DNA of 55,447 nucleotides from an uncultured Candidatus Peribacteria bacterium (GCA_964367985.1 CAYIZS010000001.1:1-55447); one strand, 5' to 3'. Positions 3,545 through 35,009 are shown, numbered from the stretch's first letter. Translations and numbers: made by a program. The notes: generated by a model from the sequence alone, not told the origin.

Positions 3545-3573
3545 CGTTTGATATACATAAGCAAAATTTGAGA

Positions 3574-5001: not shown

Positions 5002-5041
5002 TACATCAAGAAAAACTTTTATTTAGCATAAATTCTCAAAC

Positions 5042-5560: not shown

Positions 5561-5662
5561 ACTATAGTTTTTAAAAAATAATTTCAAAAAAACTGATCTC
5601 TCTCAAAGGTCAGCTTTTTATTTTTAGAATCATTTATTGGTAAATAAATTATCAGAAAAATT

Positions 5663-7927: not shown

Positions 7928-8064
7928 GGTAAATACATTAAAAATCGTAAAACTAAAAAATAAAAATCAAAAGTATTCGCAAATTATAGATACCTTAAAT
8001 TCCCTTGATTTTATTAGTTCAATCACTATTGATATAGTAATATTTTTTAGATTTAGATCATCTG

Positions 8065-8379: not shown

Positions 8380-8432
8380 GCAAAACCAGAAGAACAAATG
8401 TGAAAAAGTTTTTATCTTTAATAAAATATATT

Positions 8433-8792
8433 ATGGCAATTATCAACATTACTCAAAAAGAAGAGTTAGACAAACTACTAGCAGAATTTGGAGGAGTAGT
8501 AATTTTAGATTTTTATGCAGACTGGTGTGGTCCTTGTAAAATGCTTGCTCCAATCTTTACAGAACTTGCTTCTGAATATGATCCATCTGAAGTAAAATTT
8601 GTAAAAATTGACACCGAACAAGCTCAAGAGCTTTCTATGATGTTTGGTATTAGTTCTATCCCTACAGTAGTATATGGAGTAAATCACCAACTTGTAGAAG
8701 GATTCCTTGGACTCAATCAAAAAGAATTCTATCAAGAGAAAATCAAAGAATATCTAGGAAAGGTAGGACAAGAATCAACTCCTACTGAATAA
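8433..8792 (+). CDS. trxA: thioredoxin
   Basis: WCGPC active site (DFYADWCGPCKMLAP), with Trp encoded by TGG. ATG 8433 preferred; the track's GTG 8400 is an alternative start. Confidence 0.85.
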   Translation: MAIINITQKEELDKLLAEFGGVVILDFYADWCGPCKMLAPIFTELASEYDPSEVKFVKIDTEQAQELSMMFGISSIPTVVYGVNHQLVEGFLGLNQKEFYQEKIKEYLGKVGQESTPTE

Positions 8793-8820
8793 CACTCAAA
8801 AATAAAACAATAAAAAAAAG

Positions 8821-8852
8821 ATCAAGGGAAATCAGATTCCTTGATTTTTTTG
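8821..8852 (+). terminator. rho-independent terminator after trxA
   Basis: ATCAAGG...CCTTGAT stem (8821-8845) followed by a T-run. Confidence 0.5.
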
Positions 8853-8921
8853 ATAAGATACGTAACTTTCTCAAACCATTAGCAATTCAATGCCAAAAAC
8901 ATTTTTAGACTTTCAGATACC

Positions 8922-9905
8922 ATGCTCATCTATTTAGAAAAGAAAGTAAAAAACGATCCTATTGCACAGCAGATTATTCAGAAACTCTCAGGCAATCAGA
9001 TTTTGGAAATCGATCACTACAAAAACATTTTTGACAAAAATATCTGAAATCAGTCACTAGCGCCAGCATTTATTATCGCTAAGCAAGAGAAGATTCCTCT
9101 CCTGCCTGTCCCTCCCAACTATGGCTATCCTGGAAAAGCATTTTTTTTCAAAACGAGTCTCAACTGTATCTTCGACTGTGAATACTGCTATCTGAAGGGA
9201 AATTTTAAAACTCAGTATCCAGTGATTTTTGTAAACTATGCTGAGATTCAGCAAGCGATTAGCGATAAAATCCAAGAACTCAGATCTCAAGGATACGAAG
9301 GTCCTATCACTTTTTATGCGAGCAATTATTCTGATGTCCAAGGGATTGATCAGATCAGCCAATTCAATCAGCATTTTTTTCCTTTTTTTGAGCAGTTTGA
9401 TAATGTATTGATGGAAACGAGGACCAAATCTGCAAATATCGACTCGATCCTCCAGGCAAATAATGGCAAAGTAATGAAAAATACAGAAATCGCATTTTCT
9501 CTCAATCCTAGAGAAATCATTCATCGTTATGAAAAAAAAACTGCTCCCCTAGAGCTGAGATTTCAAGCCATCAATCACTTACTACAAAAAGGATATAAAG
9601 TCTGACTGAGATTTTTGCCACTCTTAGCTGTCAAAGACTATCAATCTCTCTATCCTCGTTTTTTGGAGGAAGTGAAAAGGAATATCCCTATAAGTCAGAT
9701 CAATTCAATCTTTATGGCCTCGCTGATTTACAATACAGGAGACTTCAAAACCATGCAAAAGAAAAATCCTGAAAGCAATTTACGAGAAAATTTGGTAGCC
9801 CATCCTAATGGATTGATCAAACTTTCAGATCAGGATTTTCAAAACTTTATCGATATTTTTGAGACAGCATTTCCTCAACAGACAATCTATTTTGATTTTA
9901 TCTAA
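8922..9905 (+). CDS. radical SAM protein, spore-photoproduct-lyase (SplB)-like (327 aa)
   Basis: ATG 8922. Track fragments 9222..9605 and 9615..9905 are in the same frame, joined by TGA at 9045-9047 and 9603-9605. CxxxCxxC cluster motif LNCIFDCEYCYL. Confidence 0.65.
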
Positions 9906-9906
9906 A

Positions 9907-10146
9907 TTATTTTTCTTCCAATTCTTTTAATAACCAATCATCTAACAAAAGGATCAAAATTCCAAAAAGAAGTGATGCAATATAATCAGTAGTAGGATTT
10001 CCAGGGATCCGATAAAGATCCAAGAGTCCCCAAACACTTCTCCAAATCATAATCACTCCTAGTGCAGCAAAAAGAATTTTCAAATTCTTACGGACATAAT
10101 AATGAGCTGCTCTTTTTTTTAAGTTTTTTTTCTTTATTAATGTCAT
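9907..10146 (-). CDS. small hypothetical membrane protein (79 aa)
   Basis: Internal ATG (10144-10146) of track ORF 9907..10212. Two hydrophobic helices (ILFAALGVIMIW, IASLLFGILILLL). TAA stop. Confidence 0.35.
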   Translation of the reverse strand: MTLIKKKNLKKRAAHYYVRKNLKILFAALGVIMIWRSVWGLLDLYRIPGNPTTDYIASLLFGILILLLDDWLLKELEEK

Positions 10147-10183
10147 CGTTAAATAAACATATAAATTCTTTATGTTCAAAGTT

Positions 10184-10996
10184 CTACAATACCTCGCTTC
10201 CTCCTCGTTCAATCACACTAAATCCTGCTCTTTGAAAAGGCTCTATTTTTTGCTCTTCAAGATCAATTGGCGCATCTAAAGCTTTCCAAACCATAAAGAC
10301 TCTCAATATACTATCTGGCTCAGGAGTGATGGTCAAAGGAGCCGTAGCAGTATATTGCTCTCCAGCAAAGTGAATTAAGTTATACTCATTATCCTGCATC
10401 AAAGGAAACCAATACACGATAAACTCATTATATTCTCTAGGAGTTAGACCGATCTCAGAAAGTTTTTCTTGTAAGAATATTTTCGTATCCTCTCCTTTCA
10501 CAACGAATCACTTTGACAAATCCCAATCTGTTTCTTCTCTAGTTTTTCCTTCCCAAAAAAGATAACTATACTCTCTATTATCAGCAATATTCATCAAATC
10601 TCCATCTGGGGAAGCGATCACTTCCCATCATCAGATCTCAGGATCATAATCTGGATAAACCGCAAAAAGATCTCATTGATAATCTAGCTCTACTTTGATC
10701 TGTTGATCAGTTTCTGGGTAAAGGTAAATTACCGGCTTCTTAACTTCTAGTCTTCATCCATTATCATCAAATATATTATATTTATCTTTATAATTTTCCA
10801 AGAATCGACTATCATCTAATATATCATCTCAATCTTTATGATTTTCTAAAAATTGGATATTTAAAAAATTTGGTAGATATCCTACTTTAGTCAACACTGC
10901 CGATCCAATAGCCAATAAAGAGAAACTAGTCACAATAATACCCAATACTTTTCGAGAAAAAATTTTAGGTTTAGTTTTAAAAGTTATCCATTTCAT
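10184..10996 (-). CDS. hypothetical N-terminally anchored protein (270 aa)
   Basis: Track ORF 10184..10501 extends in frame through TGA at 10508, 10628, 10631 and 10673 (and others upstream) to ATG 10994-10996. N-terminal TM/signal segment (VLGIIVTSFSLLAIGSAVL). TAG stop. Confidence 0.6.
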
Positions 10997-11036
10997 ATTT
11001 TTATCATTTGGAAGATAAAAAAACTACTAATGTAAG

Positions 11037-12686
11037 CTAACCTTCTAATTCATTTTCTAGTTTATCTTCTGTTTGATTTCTCAATTTCATGAGAGGAAAC
11101 ATTACTACATCTCTCAGGTTATCTTGTCCAGTCAAAATCGCTAAAATCCTCTCTAATCCCATACCAAATCCACTTTGTGGAGGCATTCCATATTCCATTG
11201 CCTCAACAAAACTATCATCTCCACTCGTTGCCTCATCATCCCCCTTAGCTGCAGCTTCTGCCTGTTTGTCAAAATTTGCTTGCTGGAGCAAGGGATCTAC
11301 CAACTCAGAATATGCTTTACAGATTTCCCATCCATTCACCAACAGCTGAAACTGTTCTACAATCTGAGCATCTGCATCTGCAGTCCTAGCAAGTGGCTGC
11401 ATAATCACTGGATAATTGTAGATAAAAGCAGGACCAATGATTTTTGGTCTCAATACTTTTTTATAAAGATAGTCAATCAAAGTAGTCGTTCCCATAACAT
11501 CCATTCCTTCAAATTCTACTCCTTTTGCACGGATATCCGATCTCAGTTGTGCTACATCTGCAATTCCATATTGAGTGATATCTATCCCAGAAGCATCTAG
11601 GATTCATTTGGTATAATCAATTCTTTCTCGAGGAGTGGTGAAATCCACGTCTCTCACCACCCCATCCTTGTCTTTTACTTTGAGGATTTTTGACACTCCT
11701 AGTTCCTCAAAAAGGTAATCAAACATCTCCTCAGCAAAGCGCATATTATCCTCATAGTTTCGATAGACTGCATAGTGCTCTACCTGAGTAAACTCTTGGA
11801 GATGAGAAGGGTCAGATCCCTCATTTCTAAAATCCTGACCAATTTCAAACACTCTCTCAAATCTTCCTACCGTAGCTTTTTTGAGGGAAGTTTCAAATGC
11901 AATCCTGAGATACATATCAGTATCATAATCATTATGATGGGTAACAAAAGGCCTCGCTGCGGCACCAGAAGCAGCATTATCCAAGATTGGAGTTTGAATC
12001 TCTATAAATCCACGACTCTGATAAAATGCTCTCAAAGTCTGATAAAATTTGGACTTAAAGAGAAATCTCTGATAAGTCTCAGGATTCATGGTCATATCCA
12101 AATATCTTTTTCTATACAGTTCTTCTTGATCACTCAAGCCATGAAATTTTTCTGGTAAAGGTCTGATTGCTTTAGTCAAAAATTTGAATGCTGAGACAAA
12201 AATCGTGAGCTCACCTTTATGAGTTTTGAATACTTCTCCCTCTACTCCGATAAAATCTCCCATATCTACCATTTTTTCCATAAATTTATAAGCTGACATC
12301 TTGCTACCTTCTGCCTCTAGATCCTCCAACTCTGTGAGCAAAACATCCTCCATCGTGCCATCAGAATTTTTCTGAGTTTGATAAATCTGACAGTGGTCTC
12401 TATGAAACATCAACTGAATCTGTGCTGTACTATCCAAAATTCTTGCAAAAGAAAGTTTTCCATGACTACGATAAAGCATTACTCTCCCAGCTGTTTTTAC
12501 CTGAATCTGAGGATTCTGGACTACCTCTTCGCTCTCACGTAAAGATTTATCTGAGTACTGCTTTATAATATCTTGGATCAAATCCTTTTTTTCAAAACTT
12601 TGAGCATAAGGATGGATACCCATCTTGAGCATTTTCTGGGTTTTTTGAATTCTCACCTCTCTTTCAGTCAATTGATGCTGTGTCAT
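11037..12686 (-). CDS. lysS: lysine--tRNA ligase, class II (549 aa)
   Basis: Track fragments 11037..11504 and 11604..12758 are in one frame separated by TGA 11604-11606, with no TAA/TAG between them. Class II motifs present (FRNEG..., GMGLERI). ATG 12684-12686 preferred over the upstream alternative start. Confidence 0.9.
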
Positions 12687-12806
12687 TGCAATTGCTTCTA
12701 AAAAATATAAAATCCCAGTAAATATACTAATCCTGATATTCAATGCAAGCTTTCTCAAAGGATTTTCTCGAAATGATCAGATTTTACCTTGGTAGTAAAT
12801 AACAAC

Positions 12807-13343
12807 ATGTCGGAGAAAAAAAGAAACTTCAACAAACAAAATCTAGGATTTCAAATCCTCTGAATCTTTAGTTTGATAGTTATGATATTACTCTATTTCT
12901 TTTTTTTTCAACTAAAGAAAAATGATCAAACTCTCCAAACTAACCTTGCTCAAAAAAATATTTCTCAAAATCCTGAACAAATCAGCAAGTTTTGTTTCCA
13001 AGAATATTGTTTTGATCTAGAAATTGCAGATACTCTAGAAAAAAGAATGCAAGGACTCATGTATCGTGAGAGTTTAGATAAAGATAAGGGGATGCTTTTT
13101 GACTCTAAAGAAGAAAATATGCATTATTTCTGGATGAAAAACACCTTGATCCCTCTAGATATTATCCGAATAGATCAAAACCTAGAAGTAGTAGAAATCG
13201 TTTCTGCTCCTCCTTGTGAGCAAGATCCTTGTCCTAGTTATGGACCAGACAAAGCAAGCAGATGGGTTATAGAACTCAATAGCTGATCTGCCAATGCAAT
13301 TGGATTGAAACAGTGAAATCATTTAGAATTAATTTGAAATTAA
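12807..13343 (+). CDS. DUF192-family protein (178 aa)
   Basis: ATG 12807. In-frame TGA at 12861, 13284, 13314 and 13335; TAA at 13341-13343. Pattern GLMYRESL..GMLF...FWMKNTLIPLDIIRID....VIELN[G]SANAIGLKQ[G] matches the DUF192 (COG1430) layout. Confidence 0.65.
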
Positions 13344-13414
13344 AAAAAGCTCCAACAAGTGGGGCTTTTGTGCAGAGCTGATAAATTCGCTCAGTTCAGA
13401 CAGAGAATTTGATT

Positions 13415-13488
13415 AGGCGCCTATGGGATTTGAACCCATGAACCGAGGTTTTGCAGACCTGTACAATAGACCGCTCTGTCAAGGCGCC
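13415..13488 (-). tRNA. tRNA-Cys (anticodon GCA)
   Basis: Hand-folded cloverleaf: acceptor GGCGCCT/AGGCGCC, D stem ACAG/TTGT, anticodon stem-loop CAGGT-CTGCAAA-ACCTC, T arm ATGGG-TTCAAAT-CCCAT. Discriminator U, as expected for Cys. No encoded CCA. Confidence 0.85.
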
Positions 13489-13587
13489 TCATCTTTGAAT
13501 GTAGTTAATTTGTCCTCAAAAGCAAGTGAAAATAAAATTACTTGCAAAGGCAAGAGCTTTTCCTATTTTAGGGTCAAGCCTATTTTC

Positions 13588-13635
13588 TCAAGAAAAATAT
13601 CAAGAAAAATATCAAGAAAAATATCAAAAAAAATC
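13588..13635. repeat. 12-nt tandem repeat (TCAAGAAAAATA x3 plus a degenerate 4th copy)
   Basis: Read directly: tcaagaaaaata at 13588, 13600 and 13612, then tcaaaaaaaatc. It is intergenic and ends 25 nt before the glycosyltransferase ATG. Confidence 0.8.
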
Positions 13636-13660
13636 TTCCATTTTATCTCAAAAAATCTAA

Positions 13661-14788
13661 ATGAAACTAGCCTTTATCAATTGTCGGACCATGCCTGGAG
13701 GGGTACTCAATGTGCTAGAAGACTGGATCCAACAAGAAATAAAACACCATGGTCCAGATAGTGAAATCCAACTTTTTACTCTCATTTCAGATTTTGAATC
13801 TCTAAAAATCCCGATCCCAGGAGGAAATGGGAAATATTATGAAGTTAAAATCATAGAAACGCTCCCAAAATGGATCAACCAAATATTTCTTTTTTTTAGC
13901 AAAAGGAAGGTGCCTTTATTGTCTGGAATTTTTGACTATCGCAATTTGATTGTCTTTTATCCTCTACTTATGAAACTCCTCTCTTTCAAAGTAAAAAAAC
14001 AAAAACCTGATCAGATTTTTATCTCTTCTTTTGCTATTGCAAAAAACATTACTCCTCTCCAAGGAATCCCTACTACGCTCTATCTCCACTCCCCCATGCA
14101 ATATATCCGATCACATTATGAAGAATATCTTGCTAAATTTCATGGATGGAAAAAATGGCTTTTTCAAAAAATCACTCCTAGACTCAGAAAATGGGATCAA
14201 AAATACACTCAATTTGATAAAGTATATAGTAACAGTCATTACACTCAGCAATGAGCACTAGAGCTCTATGGAATCGAATCCGAAGTGAAATACCCAAAAA
14301 TTAGAGATGAATTTTATTTTGGAGGGATTAGCCAACAACCATCAGAATATTTTGTCTTTGTAGGGAGATTGGTCAATTTTGTCAGAGAAGCAAAATTGAT
14401 TGTAGAACTTTTCAATAAACTCAAACTTCCTCTCATTATGATTGGTAATGGTCCAGATGAGGTTGAGCTTAAAGCACTCGCTAGAGATACAATCATCTTT
14501 ACGGGTTGGAATCCTGAAGGGATGCTCGATATCATCAAAAATGCCAAAGGACTCATCAATCTCACCAAAGAAAGTTTTGGAATCTGAACGGTAGAAGCAT
14601 TACTCCTAGGAGTACCAGTACTTGGCTACGCACAAGGAGCTACAACCGAACTGGTCGATGCAGAATCTGGAATTTTGGTCAAAGATAAAAAAATAGAAAC
14701 TCTAGAACAAGCAATGCAATCATTCAGTCAAAGAAAATGGGATAGGAAACAAATTTCCGAAAATATTAGATGAAAAATAGGGAAATAA
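13661..14788 (+). CDS. glycosyltransferase, GT-B fold (GT4-like), 375 aa
   Basis: Track fragments 13661..14254 and 14285..14587 plus the tail are one frame joined by TGA at 14252, 14585 and 14771. C-terminal E-x-FG...VEALLLGVPV motif of GT4-type enzymes. TAA at 14786-14788. Confidence 0.7.
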
Positions 14789-15317: not shown

Positions 15318-17885
15318 TTAATACATCTTGTTATAATATTCATAAGATCTTTTTAGCATTTTGAGCACCTCTCCTCTTTTTTCTGTCCTTTTAGGATTAG
15401 CTACATCATGATCCATAATATTCGCTGCTCTCAGACTTTTGATATGCTCTACATAGTAATAGGTATTATCATTATTATTAAACGTTTCATTCCAAAGCAA
15501 CCTAGAAAGCAAGGTAGCAAATTGTGCTCTGGAAACTTCCCTATTTGGCTCAAAAAGAGATCTCTTGGTAACTCCATCTGCATCATATCCCATTAGACCT
15601 AGCTGACAAGAAAGTTTGATATAATCTTTCATTTCCTGAGTCTGATCTCAGAGATCTGGGAAACTGCAAGTTTTACTATAATCTGGTTTCATATCTAGGA
15701 TTTGCATTGAAAACTCAGAAATCATTTTAGCCATATGACGCCTCAGTAGTGGTCCATCTAAATCTGCTTTTTCTATAGGACAAGCTGTTGTAATTTTGTA
15801 CTTGTAGGCCCAGAGAAAAGCATCAATCAAAGATTGAGAATAAGGAGCATTTGCTGGCACCGTACATCCTACATTTTCATAATTTTCTTTAGGTTTGCTT
15901 GGTTCTGTAGTTTGCGTTTCAGTTTTTTTAGAAGGAGCTGTACCACATTTCCCATCATAATAACTAGGAGAAAAATCTCCATCCGGACAATAATCTTTAC
16001 TAAAACCTCCTCATCCAGAACTTCCAGATTTTTTAATTGCTTCTACATCAAAAGAACAAATCTGAGTAAAGCTACCACTCAAAGTATTTACTACGGTCAG
16101 ATCAATTTTGTGAGTAGCCGCTGTATCAAAAGTATACTGATAAGATCCAGATAAACTTTCAGATCCTGAAGCATTTAAAGTCTGATTTCCATATGTAAGC
16201 AAGGTATTTTGGAATCCAGTAATAATTGCAAAGGAGAATTTCACACTCAAAGGAATATTTCCTGATTTAGGAGTTATTTGGAAATTCAGAGCATCACAAA
16301 CCGGGTATTCTAGCTGACAAGTGGCAGAACATCCATCTCAGCTTTCAAGATTTCCATCATCACACTGCTCCACATCCTCTACAACAAAATCTCCACATAC
16401 TGATTGGGAAAATAATAAATTTTGCGTACAAATCCCCGTCAGATTTCAAACTTCATTTTTTCCTTGCAAAGTAACGGTATAAGCTCCTCCTGTCAAATAC
16501 GTGTAAATTTCTTGATGTTCTCAATTTCAAAGGGCAATAGGAACAGATCCATCTCACCAATCAATACTTTCCAAAACTAGTCCTGTACTAGAAGCAAAAT
16601 TCGCTGTTACCATTGCTGGGACATAATTACCAACCACTTCTAGATCCAAATCTAATGTACTACAACTCGGAACTTTTCGCTGACAAGTGCTAGTACAAGC
16701 ATCTCAATCAATTCATGGCTCACATTGTTCTCATTCTTCAACAACATCATTTAAACATTCAGCAACAATAGAAAGAGCATTCGCTTGAGTACAAATCCTA
16801 CTAGAACTAGAATGAGAACTGTTTTGCAATACAAAAACTGGAGAATAGGTTCAAAGACTAGTATAAATATGATTTGCTGGAGATAGTGGAGGTTGAACTA
16901 AAGTACTACCATCTCATCGGTCTAATGAGTAAGCAGTAATTCGTGCTGGATGAGAAAAAGTAGCTGAAATCTGAGTTAAATTAGGTTGTCCTGTGGTTGG
17001 AGAGAAGTTTACTGTAAGATCTGAACAGCTTGGTACTTCTCGTTGACAGGTAGCAGAACAACCATCTCCATTCTCAGTACCTCCATCATCACACTGCTCA
17101 CCAGATTCAACTATTCCATTTCCACAGCTAGCACTGATAGTAATCTGAGGACCAGAACAATTTCTAAAAGATCCTGAATTATCACTATTTTCAATTCTAA
17201 AAGATGGAGTAAAGGTTCCTACTGAGGGATAAGTATGAAGAAGTGGAAAGTTAGGAGAATAATTTGTCTGTCAAGATCTCCAAGTCAATGAAGTTATATT
17301 TATCCAACCTGGTAAAGTTCATCACAAAGTTGCTGTAACGGTAGTTCCAGGTACCCCTGCAGTAGGAGAAAAAGAAAGATCTACAGAGGCACAAGAAGGG
17401 ATTTCTCGCTGACAAGTTGAGGAACAACCATCTCAACTACTAGTATTTCCATCATCACATTGCTCATTCCAAGAAACACTTGCATCCCCACAAACTCAAG
17501 AGACTGTAATTGATCAAATGAAACAATGAGTACTTCATGGACCAGATTCTTCTTTAAGTAGAATTGATACATCTATATTTTGAAAAGCATGAGAGTAAAC
17601 ATTAGTATCTGGAGATCATGAAGTACTTTTTCATCCAATTCAATGATTAGTTCCATATCGAAAAATGTCTGTAGCTATGAATCAGCTGTCTAAAAGCGAA
17701 TAATTCATTGTCAGAGTTTCTCCTATACTAAGAGAGCTTTTATCTAAAGAAGCAGAAACTAATGCACTACAGTCGTATATTTCTTGAGCATTAGAATATC
17801 CCAACAGAGACAAAAATACCACCCCCAACAAGAGTAGATACTTTATTCTTCCTAAAACAAAATTTCTATTCATAATCATTAGCAT
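15318..17885 (-). CDS. secreted surface protein (855 aa): signal peptide, 4x (PKD-like + Cys-rich repeat) units, C-terminal SLH-like domains
   Basis: Track fragments 15318..15632, 15648..15860, 16011..16250 and 17682..17885 share one frame. A codon-by-codon walk from ATG 17883-17885 to TAA 15318-15320 finds no TAA/TAG and ~23 TGA. Signal peptide LLLLGVVFLSLLGYSNA. PKD-like segments: SIDW[G]DGS...YTYLTGGAYTVTL. Cys-rich motifs: EQCDDGNTSS[G]DGCSSTCQRE (myxococcal Cys-rich repeat type). SLH-like: FPDL[G]DQ...GLMGYDADG...FEPNREVSRAQFATLLSRLLW. Confidence 0.8.
16318..17465 (-). repeat. four ~360-nt intragenic domain repeats
   Basis: The conserved DNA block ...catcatcacaytgctc... (encoding E-Q-C-D-D) recurs near 16365, 16735 (diverged), 17090 and 17455. 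Each occurrence is preceded by ...gacaagt... (encoding T-C-Q). Confidence 0.7.
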
Positions 17886-22135: not shown

Positions 22136-22306
22136 GGATCAAAGCTTCTCTCAAAAAGGATCAAAGAACTTTTGATAAGAGCATTTTTACAAGAGAAACT
22201 ACGAACAAGGTAATGAGTTTTTTTAAGCAACTCTCCTTGCAATCTTCTGAGCAAAAAAATATACTCTCTGCTGAAATAAACCCAGACTTTTATTTTGATA
22301 CAACAA

Positions 22307-23401
22307 ATGTTTTCAGATCCTGGAATCCTCCTCAAACTCAGTTTTATCCTCTCCTATGGACTAGCTAGTTTTATCTTAGCATTATTGCTTTACAAACCCT
22401 ATATCAAACTCCTTCAAAGACTCAAAGCCGGGAAAACGATTCGTGAAAATACTGCAACAGGAGAAAAATCAGAAATCTTTAGCAAACTCCATGCGCATAA
22501 ACAAGGAACCCCTACAATGGGAGGAGGACTCTTTATGATCGTGATGCTGATCATGATTTTAGGATCTTTTCTCCTCCCAAAACTCTGATGGATTGACTAC
22601 TCTCTCTGGAATCGTGAGGAGAGTTATATCATCCTTTTTGGGTTTTTTAGTATGGGACTGATCGGAATCGTAGATGACTATCTCAATATCAAAGGACATG
22701 GAAAGATCAAAGGCCTCAGTGCCAGAGCAAAACTCATCGGGATGTTTATTTTTTCTGCGTGGATCTCTTATTGGTTTTATGCAAAGCTCGGAGTCAGTTA
22801 TATCAATCTCTGGCCGTTGGCAGGAAAAATTGAAGTCTGACTCCTCTTTCCAATTCTGACTTTTATTGCCACAATTGCGATAGTCAATGCGATCAATATT
22901 TCAGATGGACTCGATGGACTCGTCGGTGGAACAATGGCAATGATTTTGACGAGTCTGGGGATCGTTACTTTTTTGAATGGAACTTATATCGCCACGACGG
23001 TTGTAGGGATCTTGGTGGCAGTACTGGTAGCATTTCTTTTTTTCAATATCAATCCAGCAAAAGTCTTTATGGGAGATAGTGGGGCCTTTGCACTAGGAGG
23101 GATTGTCGCTTCTCTGATCTATCTCCTCAATATGAGATTCTGAATTTTAATCCCCTTTTTGATTATTTTTGGAGTTTTTATCCTAGAGTTTTTTTCAAGT
23201 TTTCTTCAAATTTTTTGGAAAAAAGTTTTCAAAAAAAAGCTCTTTCCGATAGCTCCCTTTCATCATCTACTAGAGCATTATGGCATGAAAGAAACCACCA
23301 TCGTCATGAAAATCTGGCTGATCCAAGGAATATTGATTGTAGCAGGAGTTTTGATGATTTTGATCGAATATGTTTTAATCAAAAAAGGAGGAACTTTCTA
23401 G
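22307..23401 (+). CDS. mraY: phospho-N-acetylmuramoyl-pentapeptide transferase (364 aa)
   Basis: Four track fragments (22295.., 22652.., 22934.., 23159..23401) are in one frame joined by TGA at 22586, 22838 and 23141. Motifs HAHKQGTPTMGG, VDDYLNI, NAINISDGLDGL, GDSGAFALGG and APFHHLLEH. Confidence 0.9.
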
Positions 23402-23442: not shown

Positions 23443-23934
23443 CTAGGGAGTTGGTGCTGGAGCCGGAGTTGAGGATTTATTCCACCAAGCAAGTTTTGAA
23501 AACCAATTTTCTTTGGTAGGGATTTTTGTTTGTAATTTTTCAAAAGTAAAACTGGACGCTGGTTTCGTCGTATCAAATAAACTTTTTATTGAATTTCCAA
23601 GATTATTGAACAAATTTCCTGTTATATCACGAGCATTTAAAACTGCATTCCTAGATGGTTCTAAGGCAAGTCTCACTGCTCATTCTATTAGAGCTCAAGT
23701 TCAAGCAACAAGTCCAATAGGAACTTGATAAAGTTTGTTATACCACTTTCCTTTAGTTCGTGAAGAGGATAAAGTATCTCGTAATTTAGTACTCGTATCT
23801 TCTACAATAGTTCCAAGATCTGAGAGAACATTTCCCCCTAACCTCAAAGTATCTATTCAAGCTAGTCCTACAGTTCCAGCTCCTCTAGGTACTATTCCAA
23901 AAGTATTTCCCATAAAGTTTCCAAATTTTCCCAT
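23443..23934 (-). CDS. hypothetical Gly-rich small membrane protein (163 aa)
   Basis: Track ORF 23443..23676 extends in frame through TGA at 23680, 23695, 23701 and 23857 to ATG 23932-23934. It contains KWYNKLYQVPIGLVA[G]T[G]ALIE[G]AV. TAG stop. Confidence 0.6.
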
Positions 23935-24003
23935 CGTCAGTAGATATAATAAATAAATTATTTGCCCACAAACTCATTATAACTATTTTTAAACAAAAGT
24001 CAA

Positions 24004-24342
24004 TTATTTTTTATTTTTATTCATAGCAAGAATCTGATTTTTTTGAAACTCCTCAAAAACATCTCCCAAAAAATCATCATAATCAGGGATTACTTCTTCG
24101 ATATATTCTAACGCCTCATGTTCTTTTTCTGCAGCAAAAAGTTCATCCACCTTTTCTCTCTGCTCTGGACTCAAAGCAGCCAATACTGCTGTCATAATCG
24201 TATCCATCAATACAGGTTCCATCTCAGATTTGAGTAAATCAAAATCTGCTAGCTCAGGATCAAATCACATTTGTAACAAGGTATCATTGAGAAAATCCTC
24301 ATAAAAAAGATCTTCTGTTTCGTGGTGATGCATGTCAGTCAT
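24004..24342 (-). CDS. small acidic helical protein (112 aa)
   Basis: Track ORF 24004..24222 extends through one TGA to ATG 24340-24342 (MTDMHHHETEDLFYEDF...). The C-terminal part reads ...YIEEVIPDYDDFLGDVFEEF. Confidence 0.6.
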
Positions 24343-24414: not shown

Positions 24415-27400
24415 TTAAGCAGCTATTGCAGATGTATCTGCATCAGAAAGATTTGGATAAGCTTCTAGCATTTCTTGCTTAATAAGTCCGTTGGTATCTA
24501 ATAATCATGGATGAAAATATTTTTTCATCTCAGACGTAATAGTTAAAGATTCTCACAAAATAAGTGCCTCAGTTAATTGATAGCCAGAGTTTTGATCAAA
24601 CTCATAATCCATTACAGACATTAGCAAGGTATAAAATCTAGGAGTCTGAACTTCTTTTCAATCCAACATTTTACTTGACAAACGTTCGTTGATATTTTTT
24701 AGTGAGTGTTTGCGATTAACTAATAATTTATAAAAATCCTGCATATCAATATTATAGGTCTTTGAAAGTAATGTTAAGACATTTCTCTCCTTTTGGTATG
24801 CATTAAATGCAGCATTTTGTCCATAATCTTTCAATATTTTCAGAGTAAAATGCTCTGTAATAGCTTCATTAAGAGCTCTTCCACGCTCCTGAATACTAAT
24901 TTTTCCATCTGAATTTTTACTAAATCTTCTCATCATAGCTCCCAATCTACGTGCATTTGGATATTTGTTGTATGCATCAGCTCTAGCTAATTTTTTTTCA
25001 TCCTTGTATTGATGCCAATAATTGGAAGTACTTGTTCCATGAACCATCTCATGGACGATCGTATGCATCAAATTTTCTTCTATCTTTTGACGTAAATATT
25101 CCCCTTTAAAATCTTTGTAAAACAAGGCATCTCTATTGATAAACAATTCTCCATTCATATAGCTACAAAATCATAAGGTATCAGGATCATAGCTTCCTTT
25201 CTGTCACCAAAACTCATAGTTTCATACGATATGAATCTTGTCTTTATTTGGGGTTTTAGAACGCTCTCCACCAATAGCATTAAAGGCATTATCGACAGCA
25301 CTTAATGCCATCTCAATAACAGAATCAAATGAATCTTCTGCTACATACTCTCTCTCTTTTTGAATAGATTCTACCAAAATTCTTTCTGCTTCTATCCTAT
25401 CTCATCTCGCAAGAGCATCTTCTATCTGCACCGTAGCATCATAAAACTCTTTAAAGTTCGGATCCTTATAAAGAGGAACTCCATGATCTAAAACAATTTT
25501 TGCAATTTCTTCTGGAGATTTAAACTTAAAATCCTCCGGGTATTCTTCTGTTAAAAAAGGTTCAATATCTCATCCCAAAATAGCACCTCTTGGAGAGACT
25601 CCAATTTTTTCTGAACTAAAAGGTTTGGGAGGGATGGGATTAAATTTATCAAAAGGGTCATTTCAAGCTTTTTTCCATCCATCCTTCCAATGTCCAGGTT
25701 TATCAGTAATTGGTTTCGTAGGTATGGGATCTTTATCTCATTTATCTATTTGATCAGGATTTTGATTTTCTTTTTCCTGTTTATTTTTCTTGAAAGTATT
25801 GAAAAATAAAGGAAGTGGAACAAACTTAGTATTTTCTCCTACTCCTGGAATAATATCCTTGATTTTAAAGATCACTTGTCCAAATCTTTCAGCTACAGAT
25901 TCTCAATGAGCCCCAGCGATACTCCTGGTTGCATCATAAGCAAAATCAGGAACCATACTAGCATTTCCAGAAGAAGCCAATCCTTCCGCAGCTTTTTCTA
26001 AGGTTTCTAATGCACGATATCCATGCAAAAAGTCATTACTAAATGCTTTTCATGCTCGATCAGATTCCCATGGCTTGCTAGCGATTTCTCTGAGGAATGC
26101 TGACTCCTGAGTAGAAGAGAGTCCCAAAGATTTAATATTGGAAATAACTGCAGTCATTTTATCTTGATAAGCTCAAGAAGTGTTGAGCATACTGGCTACT
26201 CTAGTTGGAACATCATCAGTTCCTGCACTATAGAGCACCTCCATCGTAGCATCTGGATGTAAACCAGATAGTTGACTAGAAAGCTTTGTAGCTACCTCAG
26301 AATTTCCAGTAATCTCATGACCACCCAAAGTAAAATGATCTACACCAGATCCCTGCAAAAGATTTTCTGTAGGTTTCTGACTAAAAATACCATTACCCAT
26401 AATTGCTTGGGATGCTACCGCAAATCATGCAGATACAGCTGCTGTAGTTAGTCCATATTTGGTTGCCAACCAGGTTCTTTCTTTTTTGAATCTCCTATTA
26501 GCATTATCATAATCAGACTCCAATTCTGTCACTAATGTCGCATAATCATCTCATTCTAAAGTACTCAAATTATTGATCTCATCAAAAGTAATCCCCAATT
26601 TTTGAGCTCAAAGCTCCAAACTTTTCCACAAAAGATTCATCTCTTGCTCTACCAACTCAGGAGAGTCTGAATAGAGAAAATTATGTCCTGTTTTGAGATA
26701 AGCATCCAACCTTACTTTTGATTGTAATAAAATAGAAGACAAATGCCCTTGATCCACTGCAGACAAAGGTCTCAGTGAAGAACTCATAGCCAAAAGCTCT
26801 CCTGCCAATTCTTTGGTACTCAAAAACTGATCATGAGTAGCATCATTGTAGAGTTCAAGCTGTCTTTTGGCTTTATATCTTTTAGCTCGATTTAGTGCTC
26901 CTTTTTTTGCAAAATCATCTTGTCGTTTTTTAACTAAAACTTTTTCTTTTTGATTTGCTGATACTCGATTTTTCTCGTGAGTATTGTGTTCTTTGGTATA
27001 ATGGGTCCATTTTTTTACAAAATTCATAAATCCTGTCGTACCAGCAAATACTCCTATTTTTAGCGCAGAAGCAGCCACCACTCCCATTCCCAAAGCTCCA
27101 CCGGTTGCTCCTAGCAACACCCCTAGTCCAGCATAAGCTGGCACCTGATAATACCAAGGGATTTTGTCTAATTTGTGCCCTAGTTTGTAAAGCCAACCTT
27201 TTTCATTTTTAGTATTATCGATTTGATAAGCAGCTTTCCCTTTATCTAAAACATGAAGTTTGACTTTCAAGTTTTCTAATTCTTGCCCTCTCAAAGATTC
27301 TCTAAATTGAAAATATTTTTTTAAATTTTCTAGATCTCATTTTTCTAAATCTGGAGAGATCTGATTTAAAAATTTAGGAGAAGTCTGATAATCTAAAATA

Positions 27401-29106
27401 AATTGACGAATCTCTTGATTGATTGCCTCTACATCAGCACCTGTCATCAAAGCTTGAGACAAACGATCCATCAATTGATATTGTCCTCTCTCTACTGTAA
27501 GCTGATCTAAAATATTGCTAGAAAAATATTCGATATTTCCTTTTTTGAGTTCAGATTTGATGCTTGGATGCTGTTCTACAATCGTATTAAATAGTAATTT
27601 AAAATAATCCTCAGTAATTCTTCATAACACAAACTCTTGTGCCAAGTGATTTACTTCTGGGATTTCTAATGCTATTGTAGTCAATTGCTCTATATCCCCA
27701 AAATTTGTTTTTTGCTCTAAACTATGACGATTGGCTGCTCTAGTAAGTTCTGAATCACTTTTTGTATCCATGGTAAATGCCTTATTTTTTGCGATATCTT
27801 GCATATAGGTATTGATTAAATTTTTTCTCATTTTCCCTCTAGAAAAGAAAAATTTTGCTCTTTTTAAAAGATTTAATTTGTGAGTGACTTTATATTCATC
27901 TTTTAGATATTCCTCAGCATAAAGTCTAGCATTTTCTTGATGAGTTTGAAAAGTATTGGAAAGAACTGCATCAATTGAGACATTCTCTGGATCTGATTTT
28001 ATTGGATCTATTGGATCTATCGGATCTATCGGATCTATCGGATTTATTGGATCTATTGGATCTATCGGATCTATCGGATCTATTGGATCTATCGGATCTA
28101 TCGGATCTATTGGATCTATCGGATCTGGTTTGACTACCTTATTTAATAACCTTATTATATGGTATTCTTTAGTTTCAGTAGCAAGATCTTTTTCTAAAAG
28201 ACTTAAACTATTCTTTAATTTTCAAAGATCTTTTTCTTTTTTAAGCAGCATTTCTTCTTTAGGCCTTCTACCCAACTCATTGCCACGCATCTTATCTGCA
28301 TCTAATTCACTTTTCAAATCATCAATTATCTTTTGTATATCTGCTATTTCTTCCAACAAAGCTGCTTTTTCTGCAGTTCTATCTTTTTTTTCTTCTCATA
28401 AAACAACATACTCTACCTCATATCCTATTTTTTTCAACATTGATTCACTTTTCTTGGAACTTTCTATGATTTCATTAAGTGTTTTAAAATGAGGATCTCA
28501 TGAACCAATATCATGATTATTTATTTGAATATCTAGCCCTTGAGATAAGATTATTATTTCAGCAAACATCGTATCTAAATCTTTAATTTGCATTTCAAAA
28601 TCATCAACACTAATCCTATTCTCATATTTTTTTACCAATAAATCTTCATATTTTTTTCTAAAATCTGCATAAAAATTTAGATCATCCAGAGCAATCCAAT
28701 TCCCCTTTCTTAGTTCTATTTGTCCAGCAGGCACTCCATTATTGAGATGATTAACTCAATTGTCATATCTATTTTCAGAAAGCTTCGATGCCAGTAAATC
28801 TCTAGAAACTAATTTTCCCAATTTAATTTTATCAAGATCTTCTCTAGGTGCTGATTTTAATTGGCTCTCTAAGTAGTTTTTCAATAACTCATAGAGTTTG
28901 ATTGCTGGATCATTTGGATCATTATAACGTAAAGTAGCTTTTATATAGTCTGTCTCATGCAACATTTTCCCCTTTTCATCAAAAGAGAGTTGAGAAAAAT
29001 CCAATGAAAGATTCTCTAAAAGATCTTCCATAGTTTGAATATTTGGATTTTGAGAAAGCAGAGAAATCCTTTCTTTTATCCCTTCTGTTAAAAGGTTGTT
29101 TGTCAT
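24415..29106 (-). CDS. giant membrane protein (1563 aa) with (DPI)14 repeat and C-terminal HExxH zincin-like metalloprotease domain
   Basis: Six track fragments (24658..25158, 26173..26400, 26608..27294, 27622..27831, 28498..28734, 28756..29106) are all in one frame. A codon-by-codon walk from ATG 29104-29106 to TAA 24415-24417 finds no TAA/TAG and ~22 TGA. Layout: helical N-terminal ~330 aa; DPI repeat; Gly-zipper TM pair (WYYQVPAYAGLGVLLGATGGALGMGVVAASALKIGVFAGTTGF); a third TM; then a large C-terminal part ending in TIVHEMVHGT (25039-25053), with ALNEAITEHF ~60 aa later. Confidence 0.8.
28000..28125 (-). repeat. 14 tandem 9-nt units (GAT CCR ATA) encoding (Asp-Pro-Ile)14
   Basis: Read directly on the plus strand as tat(t/c)ggatc x14. 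In the giant ORF frame this gives DPIDPIDPI..., with one DPI->NPI variant (28036-28044). Confidence 0.9.
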
Positions 29107-29207: not shown

Positions 29208-29235
29208 ATTATACATAAATGATATTTATATTCAA
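29208..29235 (-). promoter_or_regulatory. candidate sigma-70 promoter of the giant gene
   Basis: Minus strand: TTGAAT (29230-29235), 16-nt spacer, TATAAT (29208-29213), ~100 nt upstream of ATG 29106 and just downstream of a terminator. Confidence 0.4.
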
Positions 29236-29246
29236 CTTAAAATTTA

Positions 29247-29273
29247 TTAAAAAATCTGAGACTTTTCTCAGAT
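29247..29273 (-). terminator. rho-independent terminator after the 92-aa gene
   Basis: Perfect 8-bp stem ATCTGAGA / TCTCAGAT (29254-29273) with a 4-nt loop. The plus-strand A-run (29249-29253) is a T-run on the minus strand. Confidence 0.6.
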
Positions 29274-29299
29274 TTCTTCATTTATAGGTTAGAAAAGAA

Positions 29300-29578
29300 T
29301 TATGCAAGATACTCCGCCAAAAAAGAAGAAGTAACTTCTTCTAAAAGTCAGATATAATTTGGGATTTTAAAAAACAATTTGGAGTCTAATTCTTCTATTG
29401 TAGATGCCTGAATTTCTGCCATTACTTGATCATCAACCAATAGTTCTATCTCTCACCAAAAAAGCTCTTCGATCTGTGTTTCTATAAAATCTTTTTCATA
29501 TTCAGAAAAATCATCTTGAGCAATTTGTTGTACTCTATCTACTGCATAATTTTTAGCATCTTGTAAAGTCTTAAGCAT
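29300..29578 (-). CDS. small acidic helical protein (92 aa)
   Basis: Not in the track because it is split by TGA at 29453 and 29348. ATG 29576-29578 to TAA 29300-29302, hand translated: MLKTLQDAKNYAVDRVQQIAQDDFSEYEKDFIETQIEELFW[G]EIELL...FFKIPNYI[G]LLEEVTSSFLAEYLA. Confidence 0.55.
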
Positions 29579-29614: not shown

Positions 29615-30541
29615 TTATGCTGCCAAACCAACATTTCTTTTTTGTTGATCAACATATTTTTTCTGAGCCTCTAATAACTCCTCTGCTATCAAATTCTTGA
29701 GGCCAATAGTCCAAGTGCTATCTTTTTCATCGATTTTGATTTTTTCTTTCAAAATTGCAAGCTGTTCTCAAATTGTATCTGATTTCCATTTCCACAACAT
29801 TTTCACCTTCCCTCTTTTGAGAGTTTGTCTAGTTCAAAATAAGCTGGTATTTGTTAGCCCCATTAAATAAATTAATACATTTTTAGGATAATCTTCGGAA
29901 TAATTCGCCGGATCTTCTGAACCTTTCATTTCTTTTATTTTTGATTGAATTGTCACCAGTCTTCTCCTAGACCAAGAGAGATATTCTTTTAATTTAGGTC
30001 CATGTGTCACAATCCCTGTCAAATTTGCTTTTAGTTCATTTATTTCATCATCCTTAACTTTTTTCAAAGTATCGATATTTCATCCTACTTGCGAAATATA
30101 ATTTTTCATATCTTTTTTAAAAAAATCCTGGAGATTTTTATTTTTTTTAGCTTCTCTTTCTTTCTCTAGATTTGCTATTGCTACTTGCATATCTACTTCT
30201 TTTTTCTCTTTCTCTTTTTTGCTACCTTTAAAATTTTCGAGTTCTTTTTGAAGAGCTTTTATTTGTTTGTCGTAATCTTCATCTATTTCTTTTAAGTCTT
30301 TAGAAACCTCATTATAAGCATTTCAAAAACTCTCATGTTTTGTTTTTACTTTTTCTGGAGATTTTTTATTTTCCAAAAAATCACGCAATTGTTCTGCTTT
30401 CTTGATACTTTCTGGATCTCCTTGCTGATAATATCTTCCCATTTCAGAATAAAGCTGCTGATCTGTCAGATTTTTCCAAGATTCCTGTAACTTCATTTCT
30501 TCTGGAGTTAAGGGTTGAGTAGGATTAGTAGTGTTTTCCAT
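29615..30541 (-). CDS. hypothetical coiled-coil protein (308 aa)
   Basis: Track fragments 30323..30589 and 29834..30067 are in one frame joined by TGA at 30323, 30080, 29834 and 29768. ATG 30539-30541 (MENTTNPTQ...) to TAA 29615-29617. Lys/Glu-rich heptad-like sequence. Confidence 0.6.
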
Positions 30542-30642
30542 TATTTTAACATCAGAAAATAAATACATATAATATGATAAATAACCCAATTATATTCTAA
30601 AAAAACAAAAAAGCAAAATTTGAAAGACTTTTTTCTCCAAAA

Positions 30643-33200: not shown

Positions 33201-35009
33201 ATGTATCGTAGCCATACTTGCTGAGAACTAAACAGCAGCCATCTCAACCAATCCGTCACTCTTTCTGGCTGGGTCAATAAAATCAGAAATCTCGGAGGGA
33301 TGACTTTTATCGATCTCAGGGATCGTTATGGGATCACTCAAATCACCTACAATCCTTCTCAAGCTAATTTCTCTTTGGCAGAGATCAAAGCAGAATATGT
33401 CCTCCGTATCCAAGGAACCGTCAAAGCTAGACCAGCAGAGATGATCAATACTGCTATGCATACCGGAGAAATTGAAATACAACCAAGCAAGATTGAAATC
33501 CTCTCTGAAAGCCAAGAACTGCCTTTTTCTATCGATCATGAAAATCCTGTAGGAGAAGATCTCAGACTCGAATATCGTTATCTCGACTTGAGGAGAAAAT
33601 CACTCAAAGAAAGCATCATCATGAGACATAAGATTTATCTTGAGACGATGAACTTTTTTGATCAGCAAGGGTTTTTGCATCTAGAGACTCCAACTTTTAT
33701 CAAAAATACTCCAGAAGGATCCAGAGAATTTGTAGTACCAGCCAGATTTGATCCGGGTAAATTTTTTGTCCTCCCTCAGTCTCCTCAGCAACACAAGCAG
33801 ATGCTCATGGTCGCAGGGTTTGACAAATATTATCAGCTTGCAAGATGCTATCGTGATGAAGACCCTCGTGGAGATCGTCAGCCAGAATTTACTCAAGTAG
33901 ATTTTGAGCTTTCATTTGTGACTCAAGAAGAAATCATTGATTTGATCCAAGCATATTTTCTCCATCTGGTCAAAAAATACTATCCCCAGAGACCGCTATT
34001 GGCAGAGCCTTTCCCTATCTTCACTTGGCAAGAAGCCATGGATCAGTATGGAAGTGATAAACCAGAACTCAGAGTCGATGGACTAACCTTTATCGATACT
34101 ACTGAATGGGGTAAAAAATCTGATTTTGGACTTTTTCAGTCGTCAACATGCATCAAAGCGATGGTCATTCCCAAAGAAATGGGAAGATCAGAAATCGAAA
34201 AAAAATATGAAGGATTTGTCAAAAACAAAGGTTCCAGAGCACTTCCATGGATCTGTTTTAGCAAAACAGAAGGAGTAAAAGGAAGCATTGCAAAATTTTT
34301 CTCTCCTGAAGCTTTAGAAGAACTCAAAAACCTCACTCAAGCTCAAACGGGAGATACTGTTTTTTTCCAAGCAGATAGCTGGCTCAATGCTTGTAATCAT
34401 CTCGGAATGCTTAGGACTGAAATCATCAAAGAACTCAATCTCCTAGAGGGAAAAGAAGAACAACTAGCTTTTGCATTTGTAGTAGATATGCCACTCTATG
34501 AACTTGGAGATGATGACCAACTCGGAGCTACGCACCATCCTTTCACAACTCCAAAAATGGAAGACATCCCTTTTGTCCTCTCCTTGGCACAAAAAATCCA
34601 ATCAGGGAAAACTATCTCTGCAGAAGAAACTCAGCAACTTTTGCAGGTCAAATCTGATGCATACGATATTATCCTCAATGGATTTGAGCTCGGAGGTGGA
34701 AGTATCAGGATTTTTGATTCTGAGCTGCAACATGCTATTTTTAGTATCCTCTGACTCTCTGATCAGCAAATCGAGGAAAGGTTCTGACATCTGCTCAAAT
34801 CCTTTCAATACGGAGTACCACCTCATGGAGGCTGTGCTTTTGGTCTAGATAGGATCGTTATGCTCCTCCAAAACAAAGAGAATATTCGTGAAGTGATGAT
34901 TTTTCCAAAGAACCAAAGATATCGTGACCTCATGCTCAATGCTCCTAGCGATATTGATGCAGACTTTTTGGATGAACTAGGACTGGCTATTGCAGAGAAA
35001 AAAGAATAA
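33201..35009 (+). CDS. aspS: aspartate--tRNA ligase (602 aa)
   Basis: ATG 33201. Track ORF 33300..34754 is extended at both ends through TGA at 33222, 34752 and 34785. MYRSHTC[G]ELN..., class II motifs, C-terminus F[G][30 protein letters not shown] at 35007-35009. Confidence 0.9.

Follow-up and report, generated by a model that had tools for sequence, protein, structure and literature searches.

The stretch of DNA analysed here, called the window throughout, comprises 55,447 nucleotides (GCA_964367985.1 CAYIZS010000001.1:1-55447), and on its minus strand it carries a giant gene that encodes a protein of 1563 residues and lies within a conserved cluster of five genes. With TGA read as glycine the gene is a single open reading frame (ORF), and its product, as judged from the comparison of homologs, very probably consists of a conserved core and an exchangeable C-terminal head, the head in the window being a putative zincin-like domain. 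Two alignments are used below: A5, which holds 17 sequences of the head family, with conservation taken at a cut of at least 90%, and A6, in which window residues 374-1106 are aligned with the orthologs L001-L003 and which served as a search profile. The features of the giant gene are the following.

24415-29106, minus strand: complete coding sequence of the giant, with 22 TGA codons read as Gly; intact full-length orthologs are present in L002 and L003.
28141-29106, minus strand: variable helical/coiled-coil region, aa 1-322; not conserved in L009, L010 and L011.
28000-28126, minus strand: (DPI)n acidic Pro-rich spacer, a 9-bp tandem array of 14.1 copies with one unit NPI.
25789-27987, minus strand: core module, aa 374-1106, ending in FFNTFK; found with alignment A6 in code-25 Absconditabacteria-type genomes only.
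27016-27156, minus strand: Gly-zipper hydrophobic stretch, aa 651-697, from Kyte-Doolittle hydropathy; K/R-rich flanks on both sides in five members.
26968-27015, minus strand: juxtamembrane motif KKWTHYTKEHNTHEKN, aa 698-713; nearly invariant, present in all homologs compared, with columns invariant in A4 and A6.
26383-26457, minus strand: third hydrophobic segment, aa 884-908, a putative N-in/C-out signal-anchor with a marginal Kyte-Doolittle value of 1.31.
25612-25788, minus strand: low-complexity K/E/P-rich linker between core and head, aa 1107-1165.
24418-25611, minus strand: zincin-like head, aa 1166-1563, ending in Ala-Ala; assigned from a family of 32, the conservation in A5 and a model of P0015.
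25039-25053, minus strand: HEMVH (H1352, E1353, H1356), at least 90% conserved in A5; helix 172-191 of the P0015 model.
24850-24870, minus strand: NEAITEH (E1414, with E1418 at +4); the P0015 counterparts E242 and E246 are nearly invariant and lie in model helix 238-255.

Over the 4692 nt, or 1564 codons, of the gene, 22 TGA, no TAG and a single TAA, the terminal one (24415-24417), occur in frame. Translation with table 25 or table 4 gives 1563 residues and the terminal TAA, whereas table 11 gives 23 stops, 22 of them TGA. The frame is open from 29118 and its first start is the ATG at 29106, 4 codons 3' of the upstream stop; from the base composition (35% GC) it is calculated that 1563 codons without TAA or TAG would occur by chance with a probability of about 1e-37. 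What stands opposite TGA decides between glycine (code 25) and tryptophan (code 4). In the aspartyl-tRNA synthetase (AspRS) gene of the window (33201-35009), all three TGA codons lie opposite glycines of the Thermus AspRS (Gly8, the Gly of LLGIG and the Gly of KFGFF), and in the codon alignment of the giant with its L001 ortholog the TGA of the ortholog stands opposite a GGN glycine codon of the window 32 times, opposite a window TGA 8 times and opposite Trp never. Because TGA sits opposite Gly and never Trp in both comparisons, code 4 is ruled out, and it is as good as certain that the giant is a single ORF read with TGA as glycine. Throughout the window long ORFs appear only with TGA readthrough, including those of AspRS, FtsK, sigma-70, MraY, S1, trigger factor and EF-P. 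The sequence-only reading of the locus had put forward one 4.7-kb frame without internal TAA or TAG and with about 22 TGA, giving a single 1563-aa product under code 25, and this is borne out by the frame itself, the AspRS and the ortholog.

The AspRS also bears on the organism. Its identity is 62% to a sequence named 'Candidatus Absconditabacteria' and 55-69% to sequences named SR1 or Absconditabacterales, compared with 45% to Gracilibacteria, and the two matches of the giant gene in genome collections are an Absconditicoccaceae metagenome-assembled genome and UBA6263. On these identities and matches we place the organism in the Absconditabacteria (SR1); a Gracilibacteria origin is ruled out by the 45% identity of the AspRS. 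Thus, of the earlier assignment, the candidate phyla radiation (CPR) bacterium is retained and Gracilibacteria/SR1 is narrowed to SR1/Absconditabacteria. The orthologs L002 (1659 aa) and L003 (1742 aa) have intact code-25 frames with their parts in the same order as in the window giant. In the L001 ortholog (JGI 3300034058 Ga0373119_0244751) the gene is otherwise alike but is interrupted once, near the 5' end: a TAA/TAG in frame at its position 6605 separates the main part from the initial ~155 codons, whose product resembles the N-termini of L002 and L003. This stop reflects a sequencing error or else a genuine split or pseudogene.

Two Logan short-read assemblies (L012 and L013; SRR27197504 and SRR11702756) hold the 5' kilobase of the gene with 99.99% and 95% identity. 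Both contigs break off at window position 28097, inside the array of 9-bp DPI units, and only the first ~1 kb is recovered from them; in the strain of 95% identity a TGA is kept at the single position that could be compared. The DPI copy number has no independent confirmation and may vary or be collapsed, and since the repeat period is 9 bp the frame is unaffected by it. In L011 a run of N (X in the translation) lies at ~5400-5510, inside the N-terminal ANPTTTP Pro/Thr-rich repeat of its giant, and this gap together with the breaks of the Logan contigs suggests that the spacer repeats of the giants are generally hard to assemble. A Pro-rich repeat always lies directly before the core and its sequence is variable, being DPI in the window and PEPQ, ANPTTTP or EEKPV in relatives. 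Matches of the DPI repeat to Amelogenin and MisL, obtained in the Pfam/NCBIfam searches, were dismissed as noise.

The core is the constant part of the giant. With the A6 profile, 31 database homologs are found at E<=1e-115 and 35-44% identity, their coverage being 91-100% save for one 436-aa fragment, and the other 30 having lengths of 971-1321 aa. They have in common two helical regions, between which lie the Gly-zipper stretch and the motif KKWTHYTKExNTHEKN, followed by the third hydrophobic segment and a domain ending in FFNTFK. The core occurs once per locus in the window and the fetched loci, where no paralog is present, and it has no match in Pfam, PDB or PHROGs; judged from where its homologs are found, it is a lineage-specific conserved module of Absconditabacteria. 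In the relatives L009, L010 and L011 the homology to the window giant begins at ~aa 355. The core hidden Markov model (HMM) does not reach the giants of standard-code CPR bacteria, to which the N-terminal part shows a weak profile similarity (hhalign 94%, E 1e-7); because this match is collinear, a distant common architecture with them is likely. A prophage or tape-measure origin was rejected, PhageMin_Tail being reached only at E 0.3, PHROGs giving nothing and IMG/VR holding no relative.

Past FFNTFK, a counterpart of the K/E/P-rich linker is present in all relatives, and the similarity of near-identical relatives stops within or beyond it. After the linker the core relatives end variously, with a ~420-aa domain, a ~130-aa domain, a lysine-rich tail only, EAEKKNE coiled-coil repeats or combinations of these, so that with the zincin-like head, which none of the 31 core homologs carries, there are at least five head types. 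The clearest case is that of P0047, P0045 and P0050, which are 92-94% identical over 730 core residues and have the first ~150-200 tail residues in common, after which they diverge completely. In L011 the synteny of the five genes is intact and the giant has a coiled-coil head. Because cores that are 92-94% identical carry unrelated terminal domains, we regard it as very probable, from these comparisons, that the giant is modular, with a conserved core and an exchangeable C-terminal head. This modularity, like the five-gene cluster, is a point beyond the sequence-only reading, in which the zincin domain was taken as the fixed end of the protein.

Two of the alternative heads have recognisable motifs. 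The ~130-aa head (P0044, P0045, P0049, P0054-P0058, P0060 and P0062-P0064) contains IYV.HQT...GL...G.RGH.GSD..VI.EF, has no Pfam match and could be a small toxin-like enzyme domain. The ~420-aa head has the motif NWHAVPGFDG.RVSKGEFVKNISYEKG and likewise no assigned family.

We now consider the head of the window giant. An exhaustive HMMER scan of 1.84 billion representative proteins gives a head family of 32 members, all from CPR bacteria, among them full-length proteins, 1471-1717 aa in length, of Patescibacteria with the standard code; the sole member named by its source is labelled hypothetical. A word-indexed search of 5.8 billion proteins gave one head relative, P0001, and in BLASTP the alignment of the window giant with head relatives is limited to the last ~400 aa. 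The A5 residues that are at least 90% conserved are the His, Glu and His of HExxH, the Glu of NEA, the Glu at +4, an Asn, a Tyr and several Arg, with H185, E186 and H189 being the P0015 counterparts of the HExxH residues. In L002 the first Glu of NEA is retained and the Glu at +4 is replaced by Gln, because of which E1414 is the likely third zinc ligand among the candidates. From the second His to the NEA Glu the spacing is 58 residues in the window and ~42-61 across the family. In gluzincins this spacing ranges over ~18-75, and in thermolysin the corresponding motif is NEAISD, whose Glu provides the third ligand and whose acid at +4 supports a His. The HExxH and the downstream Glu, which had been pointed out as a possible active site, are thus nearly invariant across the family.

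The fold was modelled with AlphaFold (AF2) on A5 with P0015 as the target, giving a pLDDT of 89.3 and a pTM of 0.88; an earlier AlphaFold model of P0001 (code-4 translation) from two sequences had a pLDDT of 41. In the P0015 model, long helices are followed by a sheet with strands in 130-163 and one interleaved helix, by the HExxH helix, by a four-stranded meander, by the NEA helix and by a helical C-terminal part. The best meaningful local Foldseek matches of this model, all with E>0.1, are to minimal zincins, namely selecase (4qhj/4qhf; probability 0.47-0.69, target-normalised TM-score 0.47-0.49), phage SprT proteins (probability 0.80, TM-score 0.46) and archaemetzincin. On the profile side, the strongest and most recurrent sub-threshold Pfam matches of the A5 members are zincins, namely SprT-like (4 of the 17), Tox-MPTase3, Aspzincin_M35, YgjP-like and Peptidase_M91. 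SprT-like (PF10263) reaches 13.8-19.8 bits among the relatives against a cut-off of 25.6, and Tox-MPTase3 (PF15639) reaches 18.5 bits on full-length P0024 against a cut-off of 25, with E 3.7e-4 on the trimmed domain. The window giant itself has no peptidase match in Pfam or NCBIfam, and PDB sequence searches with the head and the A5 and A6 profiles gave nothing significant, a WLM protease having E 0.53. An EF-hand-like 12-residue loop between HExxH and NEA, SKNSDGKISIQE (24922-24957, aa 1384-1395; troponin C, E 0.2), was rejected, as the stretch is variable and indel-rich in the family, and it probably arose by chance.

Since the motifs are conserved and the fold and profile matches, weak as they are, are consistent with one another, we consider it likely, from sequence and model, that the head is a zincin-like metallohydrolase, and it is probable that it represents a new zincin-like, gluzincin-type family outside all curated families. 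It would then act as a zinc-dependent hydrolase in which His1352, His1356 and Glu1414 bind the metal and Glu1353 serves as catalytic base. For the zincin domain claimed by the sequence-only reading, the motif and the order of elements hold, but a significant fold or profile match was not obtained; the profile and structure searches that had been suggested for the C-terminal region reached no Pfam, NCBIfam or PDB family. A different explanation would make the HExxH/NEA domain a zincin-like module that binds without catalysing (an adhesin head or a pseudo-enzyme), or else no zincin at all, with the protein being purely an adhesin or fibre. The lack of a significant match to any peptidase family would fit this, as would the other heads of the family, which are coiled-coil or short domains, and in the Vampirococcus genome paper giant membrane proteins are proposed as attachment factors (PMC8080830). 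However, the near-invariant His, Glu, His, Glu and Glu, a Tyr and several Arg, in members 23-60% identical to P0015, make the pattern of a catalytic site rather than that of a binding surface; an HExxH by itself would turn up by chance in ~5% of proteins as long as this one, whereas its conservation along with a partner Glu would not be expected. We thus hold the purely adhesive explanation to be quite improbable.

A further observation concerns the very end of the head. The complete C-termini of zincin-head proteins that were compared all end in AA (AIAA, PKAA, PIAA, QMAA, NVAA, KIAA, PVAA) except that of P0021 (GA). The set comprises the window (24418-24423) and P0003, P0005, P0006, P0007, P0009, P0011, P0013, P0014, P0020, P0024 and P0032, with P0024 ending in AA although a metallophosphatase domain follows its zincin domain. 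No other head type has this terminus, and the AA end is confined to the zincin head save for one Gly-rich homolog in L002. As a cluster-wide feature it was rejected, for the 324-aa neighbour of the giant ends in GLAA and its L011 homolog does not. The AA terminus may serve as an export tag or as a degron, or it may mimic the product and thereby be autoinhibitory.

Turning to the membrane, the Kyte-Doolittle 19-residue peaks are 1.78 and 1.69 over aa 655-688 and 1.31 over aa 885-903, and the Gly-zipper stretch is read, on hydropathy, as a two-helix membrane hairpin. In five members, the number of K+R per 25 residues is 5-6 before the hairpin and 5-7 after it, and it is 6-8 before the third segment and 1-2 after it. 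By the positive-inside rule together with the hydropathy, this charge pattern would fit an N-in anchor with a hairpin, a cytoplasmic loop and a C-out end, where the C-out part of the reading follows from the K/R-poor sequence after the third segment. The first ~650 aa and the loop of aa 698-883 would then be cytoplasmic, aa 884-908 would be an uncleaved signal-anchor, and the juxtamembrane domain, the flexible stalk and the head, ~655 residues together, would lie outside the cell. That the head faces outside is, on this pattern, slightly favoured. The layout from N- to C-terminus given in the sequence-only reading (helical/coiled-coil region, (DPI)14, helical region, Gly-zipper pair, third segment, HExxH end) is confirmed; of the membrane anchoring claimed there, the two Gly-zipper peaks stand and the third transmembrane helix is only marginal, the anchoring resting on hydropathy and charge.

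The giant lies in a conserved cluster of five genes, in the order coiled-coil protein, 92-aa acidic protein, giant, DUF5663-type protein and Gly-rich protein. The genes around the giant, and the signals upstream of it, are as follows.

29615-30589, minus strand: coiled-coil protein of 324 aa (ORF length), first gene of the cluster; its syntenic counterpart in L011 has 36% identity (E 6e-51).
29300-29578, minus strand: 92-aa acidic protein; the gene immediately ahead of the giant in L011 has 47% identity (E 5e-24).
29249-29278, then 29208-29235, minus strand: terminator-like hairpin followed by promoter-like TTGAAT-16-TATAAT, upstream of the giant coding sequence; consensus matches only.
24004-24342, minus strand: DUF5663-type protein of 112 aa, strongly acidic; identity 64% to an L009 gene (E 2e-32) and 56% to an L011 gene.
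23443-23934, minus strand: 163-aa Gly-rich protein with a Pro-rich tail; homologs adjoin the giant in L011, L001 and L002.

The whole order is also present in L011, and L001 and L002 have the Gly-rich neighbour. The L009 and L011 counterparts of the 112-aa protein follow their giants and have precomputed matches to PF18908 (DUF5663); the 112-aa protein itself, searched directly against Pfam, has no match at E<=0.1, and it is classed as DUF5663-type through its clear homology to these carriers. The homologs of the 163-aa protein have 55% identity with E 6e-54 in L011 and E 1e-26 to 1e-28 in L001 and L002. The two small genes downstream of the giant, which had been noted as following it without an obvious terminator, are thus real conserved partners. 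The 92-aa protein matches the DUF5663 set over its C-terminal IP[DN]Y..LL..F..EYL motif (hhalign E 7e-5, probability 62%) and is probably a divergent DUF5663-like paralog, and the small DUF5663-type proteins of the cluster are all strongly acidic. For the 324-aa protein no Pfam family reaches the cut-off. The promoter and terminator proposed upstream of the giant are both present as elements, but promoter-like sites are not enriched in the region, with 28 found against 30.6 expected in shuffles; a further one, TTGACT-16-TATAAT at 23976-24003, lies ahead of the 163-aa gene.

The pairing of DUF5663 genes with large proteins is seen in L004, L006, L008, L009 and L011, and in standard-code relatives the giant is immediately preceded by the DUF5663 gene. 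In L008 (GCA_964481135.1 CAYZSW010000003.1), three DUF5663 genes lie in 2656-14227, each beside a large protein, and two of these proteins, of 896 and 1149 aa, have an identical N-terminal ~440 aa and identical preceding DUF5663 genes with different C-terminal domains. By these comparisons DUF5663 goes with the constant core and not with the head, and therefore a chaperone or adaptor is favoured over a head-specific immunity protein: the DUF5663-type acidic proteins would act on the conserved cytoplasmic and membrane part. The term DUF5663 has no occurrence in the literature searched.

Directly downstream in L008 there are Gram-positive-type type IV secretion system (T4SS) genes (PrgI, TraC-like, VirB4-like, SLT/CHAP), and in L006 a VirD4-like gene and Tad/Flp genes lie near the giant/DUF5663 pair. 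This adjacency, in distant standard-code loci, would be expected if the giant is a secreted or injected effector, with the Gly-zipper inserting into a target membrane after export, e.g., by such a T4SS, with DUF5663 as the secretion chaperone and with the AA end as part of the export signal. The hydrophobic segments, which are Gly-rich and only moderately hydrophobic (none in P0005 reaching 1.3), and the AA end of the complete zincin-head proteins save P0021 would also be consistent with it. By contrast, no T4SS or other secretion genes were recognised among the ORFs scanned in the 55-kb window, and none were called around the code-25 relatives L009, L010 and L011; moreover, the charge asymmetry suits a resident N-in/C-out membrane protein, and the AA terminus is absent from other heads. 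We regard such an effector as unlikely. In the passages searched of a paper on the Patescibacteria T4SS, no effectors or chaperones are named.

In another setting, that of the standard-code Patescibacteria locus L004/L005 (GCA_021825655.1 JAKAGU010000005.1, 4424-14036), a 434-aa Pro-rich protein, a DUF5663 protein and a 1558-aa zincin-head giant lie between ftsA and ftsZ, and the window cluster abuts mraY (22295-23401). Such neighbours would suit a scaffold that faces the cytoplasm, is tethered to the membrane and belongs to the cell's own machinery for envelope or division, where the hairpin alone is in the membrane and the HExxH domain acts on own proteins inside. The marginal third hydrophobic segment points the same way, and so do the long coiled-coil and acidic Pro-rich regions of the giant, which recall cytoskeletal proteins of wall-less bacteria. 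However, the neighbours are others than division genes in L006, L008, L009, L010 and L011, so that the ftsA/ftsZ-type setting is not general, head swapping at the strain level is unusual for housekeeping machinery, and the sequence past the third segment is K/R-poor as outside a cell. The internal scaffold is thus very improbable.

It is useful to compare the locus with known systems. With gluzincins and minimal zincins (MEROPS clan MA), the giant has in common the modelled HExxH in a helix after a small beta-sheet, the downstream NEAITE helix, a His-to-Glu spacing inside the gluzincin range, the sub-threshold Pfam matches given above and the best Foldseek matches, to selecase, archaemetzincin and SprT, none of which is significant. 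Unlike them, the window head family lies under every curated cut-off, has in the model a ~45-residue beta-meander between the two helices, with a further ~170 helical residues ahead of the catalytic core and ~130 behind it, and has the conserved AA end and a confinement to CPR bacteria. With polymorphic toxins (Rhs, CDI, LXG and WapA-type), the likeness lies in the 92-94% identical cores with unrelated C-terminal domains past a common linker, in the L008 copies with an identical N-terminal part and differing C-termini, and in the small gene adjoining the giant. The giant differs from them in that no LXG, PAAR, Rhs, TPS or signal peptide is found in it with Pfam and NCBIfam, that the adjacent DUF5663 is constant whatever the head, with no co-varying immunity gene, that no silent 'orphan' head cassettes were seen, and that some members are without an enzymatic head.

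Pairs of an effector with a small acidic chaperone provide another comparison. Among these, the Eag/DUF1795 chaperones of the type VI secretion system (T6SS) shield the transmembrane helices of effectors. Like these and the chaperones of T4SS and of the type III secretion system, DUF5663 is ~100 aa long, very acidic and helical, and is constant beside the varying enzymatic end of a protein with hydrophobic segments. It has no sequence relation and no demonstrated structural relation to such chaperones, and the likeness is an analogy. Finally, in the Vampirococcus genome paper these bacteria are described as rich in giant membrane proteins (1392-4163 aa) that are thought to mediate attachment (PMC8080830). 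Those giants belong to the same group and a similar size class, with an inferred membrane location and without characterised function; they differ in being described generically, via WD40, TPR and PKD-type domains, and in the passages searched the core family, the zincin-like head, the head swapping and the DUF5663 pairing are not mentioned.

We propose that the giant is a modular envelope protein of Absconditabacteria, a scaffold anchored N-in/C-out that would carry swappable enzymatic heads, and for this package as a whole we see an even chance. Head swapping would be the diversification, in the manner of polymorphic effectors, of a surface function aimed at the host or at competitors; a host-directed role is put forward tentatively. 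Several points weigh against the proposal. The third segment reaches only 1.31, and the head would be cytoplasmic if that segment does not span the membrane; the hydrophobic segments of the standard-code relatives are weaker still, and no signal peptide is seen at the N-terminus of the giant when the sequence is read by eye. The model is that of the homolog P0015, 33% identical to the window fragment, and not of the window protein itself; with it Foldseek finds no match with E<0.1 in PDB and BFVD, and in the Pfam scan of the A5 members every match is under the gathering cut-off. The analogy to polymorphic toxins is weakened in that an immunity gene specific to the head did not emerge; no secretion-system genes were recognised among the scanned ORFs of the window; and the one relative between ftsA and ftsZ hints at a housekeeping role. 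A bolder extension of the proposal is that of an undescribed CPR surface or delivery system, in which a membrane-inserting scaffold with exchangeable enzymatic heads and obligatory DUF5663 chaperones or adaptors is used to attack or remodel the host envelope in epibiotic or predatory growth, with the Ala-Ala of the zincin head as an autoinhibitory active-site plug or an export tag; we consider this doubtful.

Some other genes of the window are noted. At 1203-3206 on the minus strand lies a 667-aa gene with 26 TGA, a coiled-coil N-terminus and several Gly-zipper hydrophobic segments; its architecture loosely recalls that of the giant, and the core HMM gives no match to it. A 378-aa protein (79-1215, minus strand) follows it, and neither reaches a Pfam cut-off. 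At 15318-17885, also on the minus strand, there is a further surface protein, secreted and Cys-rich, of 855 aa, which contains DUF4215 and PKD repeats; with 23 TGA in frame, its gene would be missed in standard-code calling. In 53992-55426, the last two ORFs are without TGA, one with a lipoprotein-type signal (LFASCKE) and the other with a Big_2 domain and a sub-threshold fn3; GC is slightly higher from ~50 kb onward with no sharp break, and this end is possibly acquired DNA or small-sample noise.

Absconditabacteria, like other members of the CPR, spend their lives attached to other bacteria, on which some of them prey. To our knowledge, the molecules of the contact between CPR bacteria and their hosts are almost unknown, partly because the recoded TGA breaks up the largest genes in standard annotation. 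The locus yields three testable objects: a zincin-like family that appears restricted to CPR bacteria, a conserved membrane core with an exchanged, presumably outer, domain, and DUF5663 as a constant partner. The first of these is, from the searches made, new, and no description was found of the core family, the head swapping or the DUF5663 pairing. The exchange of domains between close relatives is a signature of pressure from hosts or competitors. If the head is an extracellular protease, it would be a candidate for an enzyme that degrades the host envelope or processes the surface, and the cultivated relatives Absconditicoccus and Vampirococcus could serve for its study.

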